Shown here: positions 5,078 to 13,644 of the stretch, piece after piece
Position numbering within the stretch: position 1 is the first letter of the stretch
Layout of the letters: each line of letters starts with the position of its first letter
Assembly: GCF_002105155.1 (NCBI RefSeq)
Contig: NW_019029009.1
Coordinates: 124,001 to 188,000 of the forward strand
Reading direction: 5' to 3'
DNA: 64,000 bases
Source of the DNA: Lobosporangium transversale
Taxonomy: Eukaryota
Position numbers and translations under genes: made by a program
The notes under the pieces: model-generated
Told to the model about the DNA's origin: nothing
The model's database searches: none
The model's input: only the letters and a program-made list of their open reading frames with translations

Positions 5078-7834
5078 CTAAGATACATCGTCTTCTAGCG
5101 TCTGTCTCTGCTGACTCTGACTATCGATTACAATCAATGAAGGCGAAGCCTCTGCTTCGTTTTCAGACAGCTCGTCTAACGGAAAAGATGGCATCGTAGG
5201 GAGAGTCGGGAGTGGTGAAGGCAAAGTCGTGATTGACTGATCTTCCGAAGGTGTTGAGCGTTTCTGACCAGATTGAACCTTTGACCAGCTGTTGTCATAA
5301 CTCTGTATAGATTGTATTTGGTTCTCATCTCCACTTGAGCGTGGTTGGCTCAGTGACCCTTCTTCGGGCTGGCTTTGGAAAGTTTCCATGCTTGGCATCG
5401 TTGGCATGGTGGGGAGTGATGTGAACGAAACTTGTGATGGTGGGGATGGGAATGAATGCGCTCTTATCTCTCGCAAGGAGTCATGAGTATCCTGACTTCT
5501 ACTTTGTTGTGTGGCCCAATTACCTTGTCCCAATTGACTCTGATCTTGACCTTGCCTTGATTGCCTTGTCCTTTCAGGCAGTGCATAAGCATATTCCGGC
5601 GCTTCAAGCACACTGTATGAAGAGGGCTCTATGGGCGAAGCCGTTGACGCGAACGACACCGGCACCGAGGCAATACTCTGAGGGAAGGCATCTTCTTGAG
5701 CTAAAATAATATCCTCTTCGTGGCTTGAACTATTCTCGTCTTCATGTGCCGGGCTTCGTTCTCTTCCAACTTGACGTTTTCCTTGGTTTCCAGGACCTTC
5801 CTCACTGTGCCTGCGTTTCCGAAGCCCTAATTCTTGCAGACATGATGACGTTAGAGCAGATGGCAATGATGGCTCCAAACTTGGCTCTCGAACATTAGCA
5901 TAATATTCTTCCTCTTTTTCGATTTCCTCTTCGTCAATTTCTTCGTTTTTATCTTTAGCATAAACGAAAGAAGGTAAGGAGGAAGCTTCCATGATCGAGC
6001 CCTGCGTTGGCTGTTGTCCTACGACGGTTGATATATCGTCATCGTTATAAGGATCTAGGTTAGTAGTTACTTTTGATGATGTTGCTGAAGCTAGTGCCAG
6101 TTCAGTCTTGGAATCGCCCATATTAGAGGCTTCATGAAACAGTGGCACTGGCGGTACAGAAGGAAATGAGCCTTCAACCAGGACGCGCTTCTCTTTGTTG
6201 GTACTCCTCTCCGGAACAGCGTCTACATCCAAGAAGGAGTCCTCCTCTCCCAACGAGGAAATTACAGTGTCTTGGGGGGCACTTGCAGGATCGGGCAATT
6301 GTGGTGGTTTTGAATTAGTTGTAGCTCCTTGATGTCTAGGGATTGCTGGGGGAGGCCGGCTAAAGACTGGCTTACGTATTTCTCGTGGCTTTGGTTCCAT
6401 AACTGCCGGTTCCTCTTGTTTTTTTGTCGAAACTGTACGGGGTTCGGTTATACGAGGAGTCAAAGCAGTTTGTTGAAGAGGCTTTGTAGCATCGTCAGTA
6501 TCATGCCTCAAAGCTTCTTTGACCTCGCCCATCCAGTCTGTGATCCTGTCTACGTGTACTGAAGGGGTGACACTAGCAAAGGTATCAGACTGCGCGCTGT
6601 TGATAGAAATAATCGAGGGTATTTTTGCTGGTGTTGCCGTCGCCCTGTGGCTACTGCGGGCTTTCTGAGAAGTAATTAAGCCTGTATTATGATCTTCATC
6701 GTGACTAGGGGCTCTTGATACGTCTTCCTTCGGTTGCACTAATCCTATATCCACTTCTTCTGGTGACGTGGCACTAACATCATTATTTTCTGTCTCCTCC
6801 CAGGAGAAGACATTCCCTATGTGCGAGGGCGAGGATGGTATCGATGAAGACAGTATGATGACTTGCTCAGGCTGATCTTTAATCCTTGATCTAGTTGACC
6901 TCGCTGGTGAGGTGAATTTCTCGGATGTGGCAACAGACGCGGAGCCGGTAGAATCACGTTGATCAGGCGCCTTTTGTGGCGGCAGAGGTTTAGCACGACT
7001 ACCCTTTGGGATAAGAGAAGCGATACTGGTAATTGGAGAGTTGGACGCTTTTTTGGTCTTATTTTTTTGTGTGGGAGTGGCTGGATTTGTACTTTTGCCA
7101 ATAATGTTATTCGTGGACTTATTTGTAACTTCAGCAGGACTTTTGAGCTTTGAACTCGTTTGTGGGTCTTTGGTCGCTCTTGCCGCCGCTACAGCAGCAG
7201 CCTTAGATGACCCGGTTGCTGGTTTGGAAGTCTCTGGTAATGTCTTTTCGTTGGTTCTGGCCTTGGAAACGGATACAGACGTTGCTGGAGGAGTGTTTTT
7301 ATTAAGCATCCGTGGTAGGAGAGAGTCGATTTTTGGCTGGAATTTGGACACCTTCTGCTGGATGGCAGCTAAAGGTTCTGGGTTGTTATTGGTCTCATTA
7401 TTGCTCGCTTTACTACTACCTCGAGTCATCCTCTTCGAGGCGACTTTCGTAGTGGCATCTCGGTTACTCAAACTATCCCCTCCGCTGCTGTCGCCTTTAT
7501 CTTTGGCCATGCTATTTGTGAGAAGAGATTGTTTGAGGTAGCGGGTATTGGAAGAAAGGGTACCAGTAGAGGTAGCAGATGCAGACGTAGACGAAAAATG
7601 TCGCTGAACGACTTGTAAGGAGCCTTTATGACTAGAAAGGTTGTAAATATTAATGGGGTCGCAGTTTTCCTGGTCGTGTGAATCAAGAAATGGGATGAGT
7701 CGTGTCTGAATAGTCTTTGCCTTTGCAGATTTTCGTTCAGATTGAATCCAATTTAAGGTCGAAAGTGGCAATATTCTCTTTCCTTCTGTCATCAGTATCA
7801 ATGATAAAAATAAAAGACATGAACGAAATACCAT
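5078..7834 (-). CDS. Hypothetical intronless, largely disordered S/T/P-rich protein with a C-terminal SQ/TQ-rich region
   Basis: Uninterrupted ORF of more than 900 codons. Start uncertain (ATG 7834, or a later one such as 7510). No recognisable domain. Confidence 0.7.
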   Translation of the reverse strand: MVFRSCLLFLSLILMTEGKRILPLSTLNWIQSERKSAKAKTIQTRLIPFLDSHDQENCDPINIYNLSSHKGSLQVVQRHFSSTSASATSTGTLSSNTRYLKQSLLTNSMAKDKGDSSGGDSLSNRDATTKVASKRMTRGSSKASNNETNNNPEPLAAIQQKVSKFQPKIDSLLPRMLNKNTPPATSVSVSKARTNEKTLPETSKPATGSSKAAAVAAARATKDPQTSSKLKSPAEVTNKSTNNIIGKSTNPATPTQKNKTKKASNSPITSIASLIPKGSRAKPLPPQKAPDQRDSTGSASVATSEKFTSPARSTRSRIKDQPEQVIILSSSIPSSPSHIGNVFSWEETENNDVSATSPEEVDIGLVQPKEDVSRAPSHDEDHNTGLITSQKARSSHRATATPAKIPSIISINSAQSDTFASVTPSVHVDRITDWMGEVKEALRHDTDDATKPLQQTALTPRITEPRTVSTKKQEEPAVMEPKPREIRKPVFSRPPPAIPRHQGATTNSKPPQLPDPASAPQDTVISSLGEEDSFLDVDAVPERSTNKEKRVLVEGSFPSVPPVPLFHEASNMGDSKTELALASATSSKVTTNLDPYNDDDISTVVGQQPTQGSIMEASSLPSFVYAKDKNEEIDEEEIEKEEEYYANVREPSLEPSLPSALTSSCLQELGLRKRRHSEEGPGNQGKRQVGRERSPAHEDENSSSHEEDIILAQEDAFPQSIASVPVSFASTASPIEPSSYSVLEAPEYAYALPERTRQSRQGQDQSQLGQGNWATQQSRSQDTHDSLREIRAHSFPSPPSQVSFTSLPTMPTMPSMETFQSQPEEGSLSQPRSSGDENQIQSIQSYDNSWSKVQSGQKRSTPSEDQSITTLPSPLPTLPTMPSFPLDELSENEAEASPSLIVIDSQSQQRQTLEDDVS

Positions 7835-7917
7835 TGTTTTACTGTAGAAAAAGCACTGTTGAATTTTGTGGTGGCAAAATGACAGGAAACAGTGGTTAAA
7901 AAGAAGAGCAAAAGACA

Positions 7918-7990
7918 AGACCGTGCCGAGGGTCGAACTCGGGTTACAGGATTCAAAGTCCTGGGTACTGGACCACTATACTACACAGTC
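7918..7990 (-). tRNA. tRNA-Gln (anticodon TTG)
   Basis: Reverse complement GACTGTGTAGTATAGTGGTCCAGTACCCAGGACTTTGAATCCTGTAACCCGAGTTCGACCCTCGGCACGGTCT: 7-bp acceptor stem, CAGGA/TCCTG anticodon stem with CTTTGAA loop, CCGAG-TTCGACC-CTCGG T arm, downstream TTTT, TATA-rich tract about 30-45 bp upstream. Confidence 0.95.
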
Positions 7991-8142
7991 CTTTTCCTCG
8001 CATGAATTCTAGAATTTAAACCTATATATAAATAGATATTACAGCTGTCAAACAGACTACTTAAGGGGAAAGACATATGGCAATCACGTGAAACTAGGCA
8101 GCAGTTTACATACTTGTCAACGACAGACCAGGTTCAGTTGAG

Positions 8143-8162
8143 GTAAGTGGGTCCGTGGCCAT
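8143..8162 (+). repeat. 20-bp target-site duplication, copy 1 (GTAAGTGGGTCCGTGGCCAT)
   Basis: Identical to 8198-8217 and 10538-10557. Confidence 0.9.
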
Positions 8163-8197
8163 CGTGGGTCCTTGTTATCAAAAAAAAAAAAAAAAAA
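8163..8197 (+). mobile_element. Extremely 5'-truncated non-LTR retrotransposon copy (last 17 nt plus A18)
   Basis: CGTGGGTCCTTGTTATC is identical to the 3' tip of the long copy (10497-10513), is followed by poly(A) and sits between two TSD copies. Confidence 0.85.
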
Positions 8198-8217
8198 GTA
8201 AGTGGGTCCGTGGCCAT
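8198..8217 (+). repeat. 20-bp target-site duplication, copy 2
   Basis: Directly follows the poly(A) of the mini copy; identical to copies 1 and 3. Confidence 0.9.
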
Positions 8218-10537
8218 GGAAAGAGGGAAGAGGGAAGAGGGAGCAATGGTTGCTAAGAAAAATAGAGCAAGAGAGGAAAAAAGAAGAGGCGGAGAGAAGG
8301 AGAGTGTGGCGACGTGAACAGTGGGTGCAAGCCAAGCAAGAAGCCGCACACTCGAAGGCTATCGAAAGAGCTCGCCGTCAAGAACGCCTACGGTTACAGG
8401 CTAGGTTTCAAAGGCTCGATGAACAAGGAAGAAGAGAACAGCGACGACGAGCGACTTTCAACCGAGCAAGACGTAGAGCACAAGAGCGAAACAAGATACG
8501 TGGACGACATGAACTCGATGAACAAGCTCTCGATAGGAGGCTCAGGACGAAAGCGCAAGAAGAGATGGACTCCTCAAGAACAAGGAATAATAAAATCCCA
8601 GAGGGTCGTCATCGGTGGTTTGGCTCCTCTGAGTGCCTAGGTGTAGAGATCCCACAGGTTGACATGGACAATATACTGCGTCAAAGAGAGAAACTATCAA
8701 CGATGAGTCAGCTAACACTTTACTCCGATGGGTCCCTTGAAGAGGCAGGAAGAAGGGCGGCGCGGATGGCTTTCGGGGTGGAGGCTCAGATAGGCCCAGA
8801 AAGCTTCTCAAATGTAGTTTCAGGTAGAGTCGATGGGTATGCTTCATCCACCAAGGCAGAGCTAGTAGGACTGTACGCAGCCATTCTAGTCAGTCCCCGT
8901 AACGTTCCAACGACTGTCTACATAGACAACATGGCGGTAGTGGTTCAGTTCAAGGACCTTGCTCAAAAGCGAGAAGCAAGCACTGAACGGCAGCGATTGC
9001 GATCCAAGTACGCAGTGTGGTGGGCAGCCATTTCGAGAGCGCTCTTTAAGCAGGGCGGGAAGGTAACTGTGAAATGGGTCAAGGGCCATGCTGGGAATAG
9101 AGGCAATATAAGGGCAGACCAAGCCGCCAAAGATGCTCATTTTAGCGAAATGTGGACAATCAAAGTACTGGAACACAACGATCTGCGCTGCCACGCTATT
9201 TTCGAGAACGAGGTGGTGGAGGATGATCTTAGACACCTGCTAAAACTCCAATCAGCAGTGAGAACACATTACTTGTGGGCGTCTCAGAACAGAGTCAGGA
9301 ATTATATTGCAGACTGGCGAGAAGTAGAATGGAAAGCAAGCCTGCATATTCTTCACGATGGCAACACGCCTAGAGGCCTCTTCACCAGCCCAGCAGATTG
9401 TCACAAGAGAGCGCACAGAATAAAGAAGGTCCATGGTATGCTTCCTACACTCACTTATATGAGGCAGTGGCGACCGGACCTGTATGAGACTGACATCTGC
9501 AGGATGTGTGAACAGGAGCAGGAGGACATAGAACACCTCTGGCGATGTCCCATGACACTGGACGAGCAATTGAAAGGTTGGAAGCAGTCCATAGAACTCA
9601 TCACGAAGGATGGCAAAAGAGCATTAGTGAAGGAGAAGAAGCTCTGGGAAGACAAACAAGGGAAAACACAGGAGCCAAACCTGAATAAAGGAGGCCCCTC
9701 GTTTACACCTGTAGCCGACAACGTGATTTGGGGCTCTTTGGAAGCGATGTTCAAGGGCGTCAGAGAGATTCGACATGCGAGCACTCTGTTTGGTGAGGAA
9801 GATGTGGATATGGGACGGAGGAACGAGGGTGAGCATGCCCACTGGACTGTCCAAGACTTGTACCACGGTTTGGTGCCGAAGGAACTGATACAAAAATGGA
9901 AGACGATCTTCAGAACCACAGCATCGATCTCAAGATACATTGTTTGCCGCTTTGTCAAGTCAATCGAGGAACTCGGCAGGACTGAAATCTGGAACAGACG
10001 CTGCAAAGTCACCGTCAACTGGGAAAGAGAAAATGGTATCACCTCTGTGAGCAAACGCGCCAGGGGACGCAACTGTGTTGGGAGGCACAGACGTAGCAGA
10101 GGTGAATTCTTTGGCTCTCACCAGGGACAACGACGAACAGCAGATGTGAAGGCGATCAGGACTGAGGCAGACCGGCGAGTGGCGGCAAGCTACCGGCAGC
10201 AGGTGGAATTGGCGATTATGGAGCGCCTGGAAAGCTGTAAATTTTTGATGATTGAGGACAGCGGCTAAAGGATGACCTTCGCGCACAACAGGCCAAGTAG
10301 GGAGTAGAGCCGTGCCACAGGCCCTCTGGGACCAAGGAAGTCTACTCAATGCTGACGTGGTTTATGAACAGGATGTAGTACTGTGGCAGTATGACGATGC
10401 GGCTTCGGTCGATTATTGGATACCGCTTTATTTGCGACCCCAGTAATGGGGCAACCCATTTATAGAGCTAACATCTAAATAAATCCTACATGACCTCGTG
10501 GGTCCTTGTTATCAAAAAAAAAAAAAAAAAAAAAAAA
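8218..10537 (+). mobile_element. 5'-truncated non-LTR (LINE) retrotransposon with RNase H and C-terminal CCHC knuckle, 3' UTR and A24 tail
   Basis: Flanked by perfect 20-bp direct repeats, poly(A) at 10514-10537, open ORF to 10268. RT and endonuclease domains are absent, consistent with 5' truncation. Confidence 0.9.
8220..10268 (+). pseudogene. Truncated retrotransposon polyprotein C-terminus: charged helical segment, RNase H, CCHC zinc knuckle
   Basis: RNase H motifs LYSDGS, SSTKAEL, VYIDN, KWVKGHAGNRGNIRAD; CRMCEQEQEDIEHLWRC; EIWNRRC. No stops, and no native start at the 5' junction. Confidence 0.85.
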
Positions 10538-10557
10538 GTAAGTGGGTCCGTGGCCAT
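10538..10557 (+). repeat. 20-bp target-site duplication, copy 3
   Basis: Directly follows the A24 tail of the long copy. Confidence 0.9.
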
Positions 10558-10571
10558 AGTAACGATGGCAA

Positions 10572-10917
10572 GATCAGGATTGAGGCAGACCGGCGGGTGC
10601 CGGCAAGCTACCGACAGCAGGTGGAATTGGCGGCTATGGAGCGCTTGGAAAGTTGCAAATTTTTGATTGAGGACTGCGGGTAAAGGATGACCTTCGCACA
10701 CAACAGGCCAAGTAGGAAGTAGAGCCGTGCCGCAGACCCGCAGGGAACCGAGGGATACTTAATACTGACGTGGTTTATGAACAGGATATCGTATTGTAGC
10801 AGTGCAACGATATGGCTACAGGATACCGATTCCAGTATGGGGGCAACCCATTTATAGAGCTAATATCTAAATAAATCCTACATGACCTCATGAGTCCTCG
10901 TTATCAAAAAAAAAAAA
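10572..10917 (+). mobile_element. Older or diverged 5'-truncated copy of the same retrotransposon (ORF end, 3' UTR, A12)
   Basis: Aligns with 10154-10513 with scattered substitutions and indels; ends ...CCTCGTTATC plus poly(A). No clear TSD. Confidence 0.9.
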
Positions 10918-11501: not shown

Positions 11502-13395
11502 TTAAATCGAAATGGTCTTAAAGATATTGAACCCTGATGCTGCTGTCGAGATAACACATCCAGAGATTTGCTTGTGCCAATGCAGCTCCTTAATATCCTG
11601 CTGCCCCTGATGCACAAACATCAATTGAGGTGGGACCTCAATTCCGGCCTCATTGGCAATCGCCTTTTGACTTGTTCCATTAAGCGTCTCTTCAGCATCG
11701 TGTTCTACAGAGAAGTCCCACAATGTGATCTGATCGTCTGCACCTGCAACGCCAAGAACCGATTCATCACTAGGGTGCCATTCGATTGAGGTAATAGGAG
11801 CCTGGTGCCACTTGAATGTAGCAATAGGTGTGGGGTTCACAGCACCCTGTGACCACTGACGGAGATCCCAAACACTGAATACACCCTCATCCGATCCAGA
11901 AGCCAACATATAAGGTAATTTCCTATTTAAAGAGGGAATAAGCGATATAGATTTTATAATTCAGTTAGTGTCACGAAACATTCAAATACTATGACCAAGA
12001 TTTTTCTTGTTTTGAATTGTAAAACAGCAGGGTATGTAACACACCTGTTCCAGCTGATGACATTGACGTCCGAATTGTGGACCTTGGCCGTAATTCCTGC
12101 ACGCTTCTTGGAGCGGATATCCCAAATCCTGACAGTATGATCTGCAGAGCATGATGCAAAGACACCCTTCTCGGAAGGGGACCATTGTAAATCCTCAACT
12201 GAACTTTGATGGCCAACAAAGGGCACGCGATCGGGTGTTACAGCACCTGTAGAAGCATTCAAAGTTGTCATATAGATCTTTCCATTCAAGTCGCCTGTCA
12301 ATAAACGTCCAGGAACAGTCTCCGACCAATCCATAGCAAAACCTTCACATCGCCCGTGGGACTCAATGGTATAAATAGGCTTTTTAGCCGACTCGGGAAT
12401 CACGCTTCCTGGCTGGTCTAAAGAGCGGATATGGGGTGCCAAGTCCCAGAGGTGAACCTTGCCTGTATCAGCCCAAGTAGAGGCAATTTGTTTATCTCGC
12501 TGAGGCATGGCCTATAAAAAGAGAGGAAAAAAAAGGAAAGACATCTTGAGTCAGCATCTACTTTGGAAACTCTCTACATTGAGAAAAGACCAACATTACA
12601 TATTGAGGCATTAAAAAAAAAAAAAAAAAAAAAAAAAAAGTTCCTCTTACTCTAATACGGTTGACACCACCCATGTGCTTCATGCTCTTGTATTCCAAGA
12701 CAGGATCTTCATCCACATCATCATCGTCGCTGTCATCCTCACTGAGATTTCCATCATCATTCTTGGTCTTCGCCAGTTGTGACATCTTCATGACCAGGAC
12801 TTCATTGTTATGAGCCATATCCGCTTGCGTGCCTGTCACTACATAGGCTGTAGCAGGGAAAGTGCAGCGCTCATCACCCAATTGGTCCCAAAGAATGTCG
12901 AAGCTCAGGCAGGGCCATTTTACGTTCATACTGTGCAACATCTCATATGCAGATTGGTCAGCCTCTAACACTTCATCCTTCTCAAGAGTTTGGCCAGGCA
13001 AATAGACACGAACTTCCTTATCATCCTCTTCTTTATCCTGTTCCATTGCCTGGTCTACATCCATACCTACAGGAAAGAAAAAACGATATTCAAATGTTAG
13101 GCACCAAGCGATTTTGTAATTGATAGATAGTCAGTCAGCTCAATTGGACTTTTTCAGTATGATCAAAAAAAGATAAAGACGATTTTTTTTCTATATGTAG
13201 AGTTCTGGTTATTATACCTTCGTCATCGTCATCATCATTCTCAACAATGACCTCCTGGTCACTTTCGACCTCGTCTTCCCAAGGATCTTCAAATTCACCC
13301 ATGCCCTCGTCTTCGACCGTTGTGCGATCTCCAACATTAACAGAGGACTTTGCCTCACGCATGTCCTCATCATGGTCCTGAGCTCTCTTCGACAT
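11502..13395 (-). CDS. RRB1: Ribosome assembly protein Rrb1/GRWD1 (acidic N-terminus, CAF1C_H4-bd-like region, WD40 repeats)
   Basis: Four ORF segments with SAYEMLHSMNVKWPCLSFD, GHQSSVEDLQWSPSE and EVPPQLMFVHQGQQDIKELHWH. Confidence 0.93.
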
Positions 13396-13644
13396 TATAT
13401 ATGGCAGTTATAACAAAAATACAACAAGGCTAAAAAAAAAGGTATAATGTTGACAGAATTGTCGATTCGAGAGAGAGAGGGAGGGGAGGTCAAAAAGCTC
13501 AACAGGCTACAAAAAAAAAAAAAAAAATTGTTTATTCAAGGCAATTTTTGTGACTGCGATCTTTTCCTTATCACTTCTCTTCCTTTGTTGGCCAGATCTG
13601 CTCAACTCTTGCATCGTTTTTTTTTTTTACCATTGTTTAAAGCT

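Follow-up and report, generated by a model that had tools for sequence, protein, structure and literature searches.

How does a long interspersed nuclear element (LINE) come to insert more than once at the very same nucleotide, through the sequence of its target or through the position of that target? This question is raised by a stack of LINE insertions at 8143-10917 in a stretch of 64,000 nt from Lobosporangium transversale (NW_019029009.1, 124,001-188,000 of the forward strand; hereafter the window, in whose coordinates all positions are given). Two recent insertions in this stack are bounded by identical 20-bp target site duplications (TSDs), and an original prediction made from the bare sequence took them as the mark of a sequence-specific element. 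We favor a different reading, to which we assign a probability of roughly two in three, namely that the stack was built by a family of L1-like LINEs, encoding an apurinic/apyrimidinic endonuclease (APE), a reverse transcriptase (RT), RNase H and a CCHC motif, which chooses its sites by position upstream of tRNA genes and not by sequence.

The stack and the tRNA gene beside it

The 20-mer GTAAGTGGGTCCGTGGCCAT that constitutes the TSD has exactly three matches in the 64-kb window and none over 100 shuffles, even when 3 mismatches are allowed. All features of the stack lie on the forward strand, and its three insertions share one orientation. The first TSD copy (8143-8162, 20 bp) ends in a T that forms a 1-nt microhomology with both young inserts, and is followed by an extreme 5'-truncated stub (8163-8197) consisting of the element's last 17 nt, 17/17 identical to 10497-10513, and an A18 tail. 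The second TSD copy (8198-8217) precedes a young 5'-truncated LINE copy (8218-10537; 2,296 nt plus A24), and the third (10538-10557) is followed by 14 bp of original flank (10558-10571), into which a decayed RNase H relic described below continues. Beyond these 14 bp lies an older 5'-truncated copy with an A12 tail (10572-10917), which over 10572-10905 matches the young copy at 294 of 333 aligned bases (88%); no TSD is detectable around it. The coordinates thus bear out the predicted layout, as well as the claim that both recent tails (A18 and A24) join at the G of GTAAGT. Both young 5' junctions have one T in common with the TSD. Runs of at least 10 A or T, 10-41 nt long, are very frequent across the window, and the poly(A) tails alone are therefore little proof of insertion. 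Poly(A), TSD and 5' truncation with microhomology are all present, in agreement with the predicted origin by target-primed reverse transcription (TPRT). We infer an age order in which the stub is probably the newest insertion of the stack.

A single tRNA gene is found in the window by ARAGORN, and it adjoins this stack. The tRNA-Gln(TTG) gene occupies 7918-7990 of the reverse strand (7917-7991 in ARAGORN; Rfam RF00005, 60.2 bits), so that its 5' end at 7990 faces the element head to head. From this 5' end it is 152 bp to the first base of the TSD, 172 bp to the young 5' junctions and, in empty-site coordinates, 186 bp to the 5' junction of the older copy. LINE-protein matches in the window (52 queries) merge into two intervals, both of them inside the stack. 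Outward from the tRNA gene follow the stub (17/17), the 2.3-kb copy (about 99% identical to the majority contigs of its family) and the 88% copy. A tRNA gene 152 bp away points to targeting by position. The original prediction had missed both this gene and the location of the 20-mer within the RNase H relic. At lowered thresholds ARAGORN returns noise everywhere (175 calls in 11 loci and 102 in the window), and these calls were discarded.

Loci of related elements

Relatives of the element occur at 11 metagenome loci, of which L002, L003, L006 and L011 carry at least 200 bp of 5' flank; L001, L004, L005 and L007-L010 lack a usable one. At two of the four usable loci, both of them with full-length elements, a tRNA gene stands head to head with the element: tRNA-Glu in L003 and tRNA-Cys in L006, respectively 149 bp and 155 bp from a conserved 5'-terminal motif that is common to four full-length copies and defines the element start in these two. 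With the window protein, the proteins of L003 and L006 share 48% and 47% identity, respectively, and L003 falls on a separate branch from the window open reading frame (ORF) in a tree of 24 of 26 rows, L006 and P0017 having dropped out. Because of this distance and this branching the tRNA habit looks shared across the clade. L003 also repeats the age order of the window, with an intact copy adjoining the tRNA gene and a decayed copy behind it. By hand arithmetic, using the window density of one tRNA per 64 kb, a 250-bp zone and one orientation, a tRNA gene would be met by accident with a chance of about 0.002 per locus, and two of four loci would show one with a chance of about 2e-5, or 2e-3 at tenfold tRNA density.

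The element and its family

The element is, as judged from its sequence, an APE-type, L1-like non-LTR (long terminal repeat) retrotransposon and a product of TPRT. Its open frame in the window (8202-10268, forward strand, 688 codons from stop to stop, the first codons being TSD) represents the C-terminal third of ORF2, lacking a start as well as RT and APE. RNase H (PF00075, E 2.7e-13, about 8709-9137) is the only Pfam domain above cutoff and contains the four acidic motifs (DGS, AEL, IDN and AD..AK). The CCHC motif at 9498 comes after RNase H and is followed by IWNRR at 9987; no match to the PD..(D/E)xK pattern of a restriction-like nuclease is found in this frame, so the C-terminus is as originally described. 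The assignment to the APE type rather than the restriction-like type likewise holds. Longer relatives of 1,887-2,031 aa bear APE, RT and RNase H (PF03372, PF00078 and PF00075 together in four of four full-length relatives, which are 46-53% identical over the shared part), and their best match among solved structures is human L1 ORF2p (E 3.5e-49, two domains), against 2e-36 for R2. Five metagenome loci have a two-ORF layout, in which ORF1 measures 523-644 aa and ORF2 about 1,900-2,040 aa, that of L006 being cut by the contig end. Four of the five ORF1s give matches, mostly weak, to RNA recognition motifs, zinc knuckles or both. The 3' untranslated region (UTR; 10269-10513, forward strand) ends in a family-wide TAAA..GGGTCCT..poly(A) motif, and a consensus RNA structure sought in nine aligned 3' ends is absent.

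In the protein search a 99% identical protein carries the name Lobosporangium transversale, in agreement with the predicted fungal origin. Fifteen other species-named proteins among 29 matches come from genera that we take all to be Mortierellaceae, and no relatives are found in viral contigs or prokaryote genomes. Sequencing depth near 8300 is 13-15 times that of the flank and rises toward the 3' end, a rough guide taken from three runs labelled as one organism. Majority contigs differ from the window copy at 5-6 of 623, 2 of 377, 2 of 452 and 0 of 229 bases and are thus about 99% identical to it, in line with the predicted recent activity, and full-length members extend upstream of about 8228 (a loose end in runs X1, X3 and X4). 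The family is, on these sequence comparisons, young and multicopy, with longer members. Relative to the full-length contigs, the 2.3-kb copy has an apparent 7-nt purine-repeat duplication at 8218-8234, just inside its 5' junction.

Within the element, contigs of runs X1, X3 and X4 all start at 9063, where depth rises (9063-9092). There the RNase H DNA of the element itself has the target-like sequence AG/GTAA; the common contig start may reflect a self-insertion or a 5' truncation that copies have in common.

The target and tests of sequence specificity

When both young inserts are removed by coordinates, the target can be read as the decayed remnant of RNase H-coding DNA from a sister LINE family (8087-8162, forward strand, left edge approximate, continuing at 10558-10571), which has one stop and one frameshift, contains the 20-mer and ends in W-V-R-G-H. 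The relic scores 13.8 bits on an unselected family hidden Markov model (HMM), against a maximum of 7.1 in 60 random segments treated alike, and 20.3 bits on a sister-clade HMM that was picked after pairwise scores were known, against a maximum of 6.4 in 300 random window segments. It does not continue beyond the tail of the older copy (4.2 bits). The DNA of 7995-8162 also aligns weakly to the C-terminal coding region of the element; this alignment was set aside, since the family HMM places the segment on RNase H instead. Counting the relic and the three copies, the tRNA-Gln flank has therefore received no fewer than four LINE insertions, which come from two families; the site has long served as a landing pad, the sister-LINE relic and the 88% copy having been there earlier. 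The L003 and L006 flanks contain no LINE relic between the tRNA gene and the element, and the relic is therefore unnecessary for targeting.

Does the element nevertheless recognize the 20-mer? The poly(A)-side flanks of other host copies are masked, 10503-10571 being skipped as repeat; the 5' junctions of other truncated copies are visible. Among the matches listed (24 of 61), these junctions give 11 distinct strings, and none of them ends in the TSD; they come mostly from short, older copies, some could be diverged 3' UTR instead of flank, and coverage of the youngest subfamily is incomplete. One other host tail, from run X4, is followed by unrelated DNA (among the matches listed, 19 of 101). 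None of six tails in the relatives begins with the 20-mer, the nearest being CTAAGTG. The expectation that the 3' flanks of most copies would begin with the target finds no support in that host tail, among the matches listed, or in the relatives' tails. Furthermore, the target region (8036-8169) has single-copy depth and, with no Rfam family above threshold, lies outside any small-RNA gene. The element's last 17 nt and the TSD share GTGGGTCC (at 10498-10505 and 8147-8154, respectively), which is also present in 71 of 20,000 random 20-mers of the window, and the GGG(T/A)CCT motif is family-wide and therefore did not evolve for this target. From these comparisons, in which the youngest copies are not fully covered, strict sequence specificity is not supported. 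The original claim of target-specific insertion thus divides in two: targeting as such is supported by the tRNA geometry at three loci, and specificity for GTAAGTGGGTCC is not supported (0/11 strings among the matches listed, 0/6 tails).

A candidate mechanism, counter-evidence and alternatives

By analogy with TRE5-A of Dictyostelium, the ribonucleoprotein may be tethered by the RNA polymerase III machinery (TFIIIC/TFIIIB) or by the adjoining nucleosome, which would set the distance. APE would nick the bottom strand at 8142/8143, RT would copy the element RNA starting from its poly(A), and the top strand would be cut 20 nt further on. Each insertion would keep the tRNA-side flank and the first TSD, so that the next would meet the same distance and the same sequence. 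Because flank and TSD survive, this next insertion would reuse both cuts and push older copies outward, and we infer that such reuse explains the identical TSD without sequence specificity. A TATA-rich stretch at 8022-8040, 30-50 bp upstream of the tRNA-Gln 5' end, may be where TFIIIB would sit.

Several observations weigh against targeting by position. The distances of 149-186 bp exceed every TRE5 and NLTR distance given in the accessible literature (2-98 bp; see below), and the motif that fixes the 5' ends of L003 and L006 may place them about 12 nt off. At L011, a decayed fragment, there is no tRNA gene within about 1 kb upstream, and at L002 neither ARAGORN nor Rfam finds one in 930 bp upstream; here a full-length copy instead comes immediately after the poly(A) of an older one, which lies on its 5' side. 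No TSD is found in L002, L003 or L005 (0/3), possibly due to metagenome contigs merging copies. Finally, the independent test loci number just two, both from other families, and a second tRNA-adjacent copy of the window's own family is not shown.

Part of this record would be accounted for by a LINE of weak targeting that accumulates in older LINE copies, in poly(A) tails and in other tolerated intergenic DNA, a reading that is in our estimate unlikely. The twin TSD would then come either from a compound event, in which an unsealed nick was primed twice, giving the 2.3-kb copy and then the stub, or from a local hot spot aided by the 8-nt match of the element's 3' end to the target. Stacks do occur in L002 and L003 as well; L002 has a tiny piece of tail plus A8 past its main tail and an intact copy placed after an older poly(A), a poly(A) run stands in front of one host copy (place 10328), GTGGGTCC occurs both in the TSD and in the element's last 17 nt (at the background frequency given above), and L011 lacks a nearby tRNA gene. 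Such accumulation leaves unexplained, however, why three lineages have tRNA genes in one orientation at 149, 152 and 155 bp, and in L003 and L006 there is no LINE relic between tRNA and element. A compound event could yield the twin TSD yet remain compatible with tRNA targeting.

True sequence specificity, which in its boldest form would have the element recognize DNA coding the RNase H W-V-R/K-G-H of competing LINEs and insert there, is improbable. Two insertions with both cut positions identical to the base would follow directly from it, and the TSD does span the K-W-V-R-G-H codons of the sister-LINE relic; the contig starts of three runs at 9063, in element RNase H DNA with a target-like AG/GTAA, and the CTAAGTG after one relative's tail can be read in the same way. 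Against it stand the 11 host 5'-junction strings among the matches listed, none of which matches the TSD, the unrelated DNA after one host tail, and the 88% copy, which lies 14 bp off with a different 3' flank. The TSD region is, moreover, single-copy in depth, whereas known sequence-specific elements use multicopy targets.

Short-read contigs cover the tRNA gene through the first TSD (run X4) and the older copy into its 3' flank (runs X1 and X4); no contig among the matches listed spans the whole array, and the junction from A18 through TSD to the 2.3-kb copy is not among the contig pieces listed, which shows neither its presence nor its absence. An assembly artefact in part of the triple repeat, with a repeat copy mis-joined into a real stub insertion, is improbable: no read set spans the array and the X1 contig with the third TSD runs through unbroken where a second TSD context could have interrupted it, yet the window contains no N, the 2.3-kb copy has its own microhomology 5' junction and private differences (5-6 in 623 bp), the tail lengths differ, simplified contigs drop single-copy links into high-depth repeats, and the tRNA geometry would stand regardless.

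Other features of the window and the loci

The stack is intergenic, with protein genes on either side. An intron-containing WD40 gene on the reverse strand at 11502-13407 presumably resembles the ribosome-assembly factor RRB1/GRWD1, a long low-complexity ORF (5078-7975, reverse strand) lies behind the tRNA-Gln gene, and microsatellites are numerous throughout the window. The cut site at 8140-8148 reads GAG/GTAAGT, a match to the consensus 5' splice-site sequence, and gives no sign of use as a splice site.

Two inverted tRNA-like stretches seen by eye in L002 (25-205), the first with A- and B-box-like motifs 45 nt apart, are unsupported by ARAGORN or by Rfam at E up to 10 and were not counted; they may be tRNA pseudogenes or a short interspersed nuclear element. 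Past the main tail of the same locus, 8727-8823 comprises a 9-nt tail repeat and A8 followed by a copy of the internal segment 6748-6818, a tandem arrangement without TSD. At about 640-1000 of L008, a segment with many GGTTAACC palindromes and an inverted repeat (839-902) breaks up a LINE fragment; this segment may be a further mobile element. The sole motif match, L012, is chance bacterial DNA with neither LINE nor tRNA.

Relation to known elements and significance

The LINEs Tx1 and R1 are APE-type elements with target preference, each for one multicopy sequence. Unlike at their targets, flanks differ among copies of the present element, and the window target is a single-copy decayed LINE relic. 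Closer parallels come from elements that seek tRNA genes. In the accessible text of one 2018 review, tRNA-targeting non-LTR elements are listed from dictyostelids only, and fungal tRNA-targeters are all LTR elements (PMC5911963). Dictyostelium TRE5-A/B/C are APE-type elements with two ORFs and an oligo(A) tail that lie upstream of many different tRNA genes in opposite orientation (PMC5911963), and the L. transversale element and its relatives resemble them, here at three different tRNAs. TRE5 is placed there 40-54 bp upstream, in opposite orientation and through contact of ORF1 with TFIIIB, and TRE3 downstream (PMC5911963). TRE5 integration further depends on the B box. This TRE5-like orientation is seen in the window, L003 and L006, and not in L002 or L011. 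The window stack and its relatives lie at 149-186 bp, whereas all TRE5 families lie 31-98 bp upstream as far as the available text reports (PMC5006619), and TRE5 is described as an amoebal element whose ORF2 carries APE, RT and zinc finger without RNase H, while ours is fungal and has RNase H.

NLTR-A and NLTR-B offer the nearest domain parallel, sharing APE-RT-RNase H and a place upstream of tRNA genes; their RNase H and their failure to fit any known clade are noted in the available portion of PMC5006619. They insert at 2-6 bp and 39-64 bp, respectively (PMC5911963, as accessible), as opposed to 149-186 bp, and are described as having RNase H in place of the zinc finger, whereas the present element has both. 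No NLTR sequence appears among the protein matches listed. The element thus works like TRE5 or NLTR-B, some 100 bp more distant from the tRNA gene, but departs from them in distance and domains, and is therefore not filed as a member of either.

Among fungal elements, Ty1 of Saccharomyces cerevisiae also inserts farther upstream of Pol III genes, in nucleosomal DNA, but is described as an LTR element that uses an integrase over a window of about 750-1000 bp, whereas the present element uses TPRT at a narrow distance. Grem-LINE1 of Mucoromycotina resembles it as an L1-like LINE of the same phylum with a zinc-knuckle ORF1, APE, RT and clustered placement. Grem-LINE1 is, however, pericentromeric and gene-free in its placement, and RNase H or tRNA is not mentioned in the main text of the report (bioRxiv 10.1101/706580), whereas our stack stands between protein genes beside a tRNA gene and RNase H is present. 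The Candida L1 element Zorro3, also an APE-type LINE with target preference, targets poly(A) according to the accessible text of PMC7175516, unlike the young cuts described here, which are not in poly(A). Searches of the full-text literature, which leave Repbase reports and most subscription journals outside their coverage, turned up no paper describing a tRNA-targeting LINE from Mortierellaceae or any other fungus; the element is thus apparently undescribed, as had been supposed, and a prior note on it is possible.

What, then, does the stack mean for this family? We consider it an even bet that a Mortierellaceae-wide clade of APE-RT-RNase H LINEs, the sister family included, homes to a narrow zone about one nucleosome length upstream of tRNA genes, which would make it the first fungal tRNA-targeting non-LTR lineage, at a novel landing distance and perhaps related to NLTR-A/B. 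Identical TSDs at repeated insertions need not imply sequence specificity. A fungal LINE at about 150 bp would provide an independent test of how Pol III machinery or the adjoining nucleosome guides TPRT, and the intact two-ORF relatives (L002-L005) make the question directly testable. Mortierella strains close to the hosts are genetically tractable and in industrial use, and a base-precise LINE with a safe-harbour target would be of interest for gene insertion. If the kinship with NLTR-A/B were true, tRNA targeting in this lineage would be very old and not convergent.

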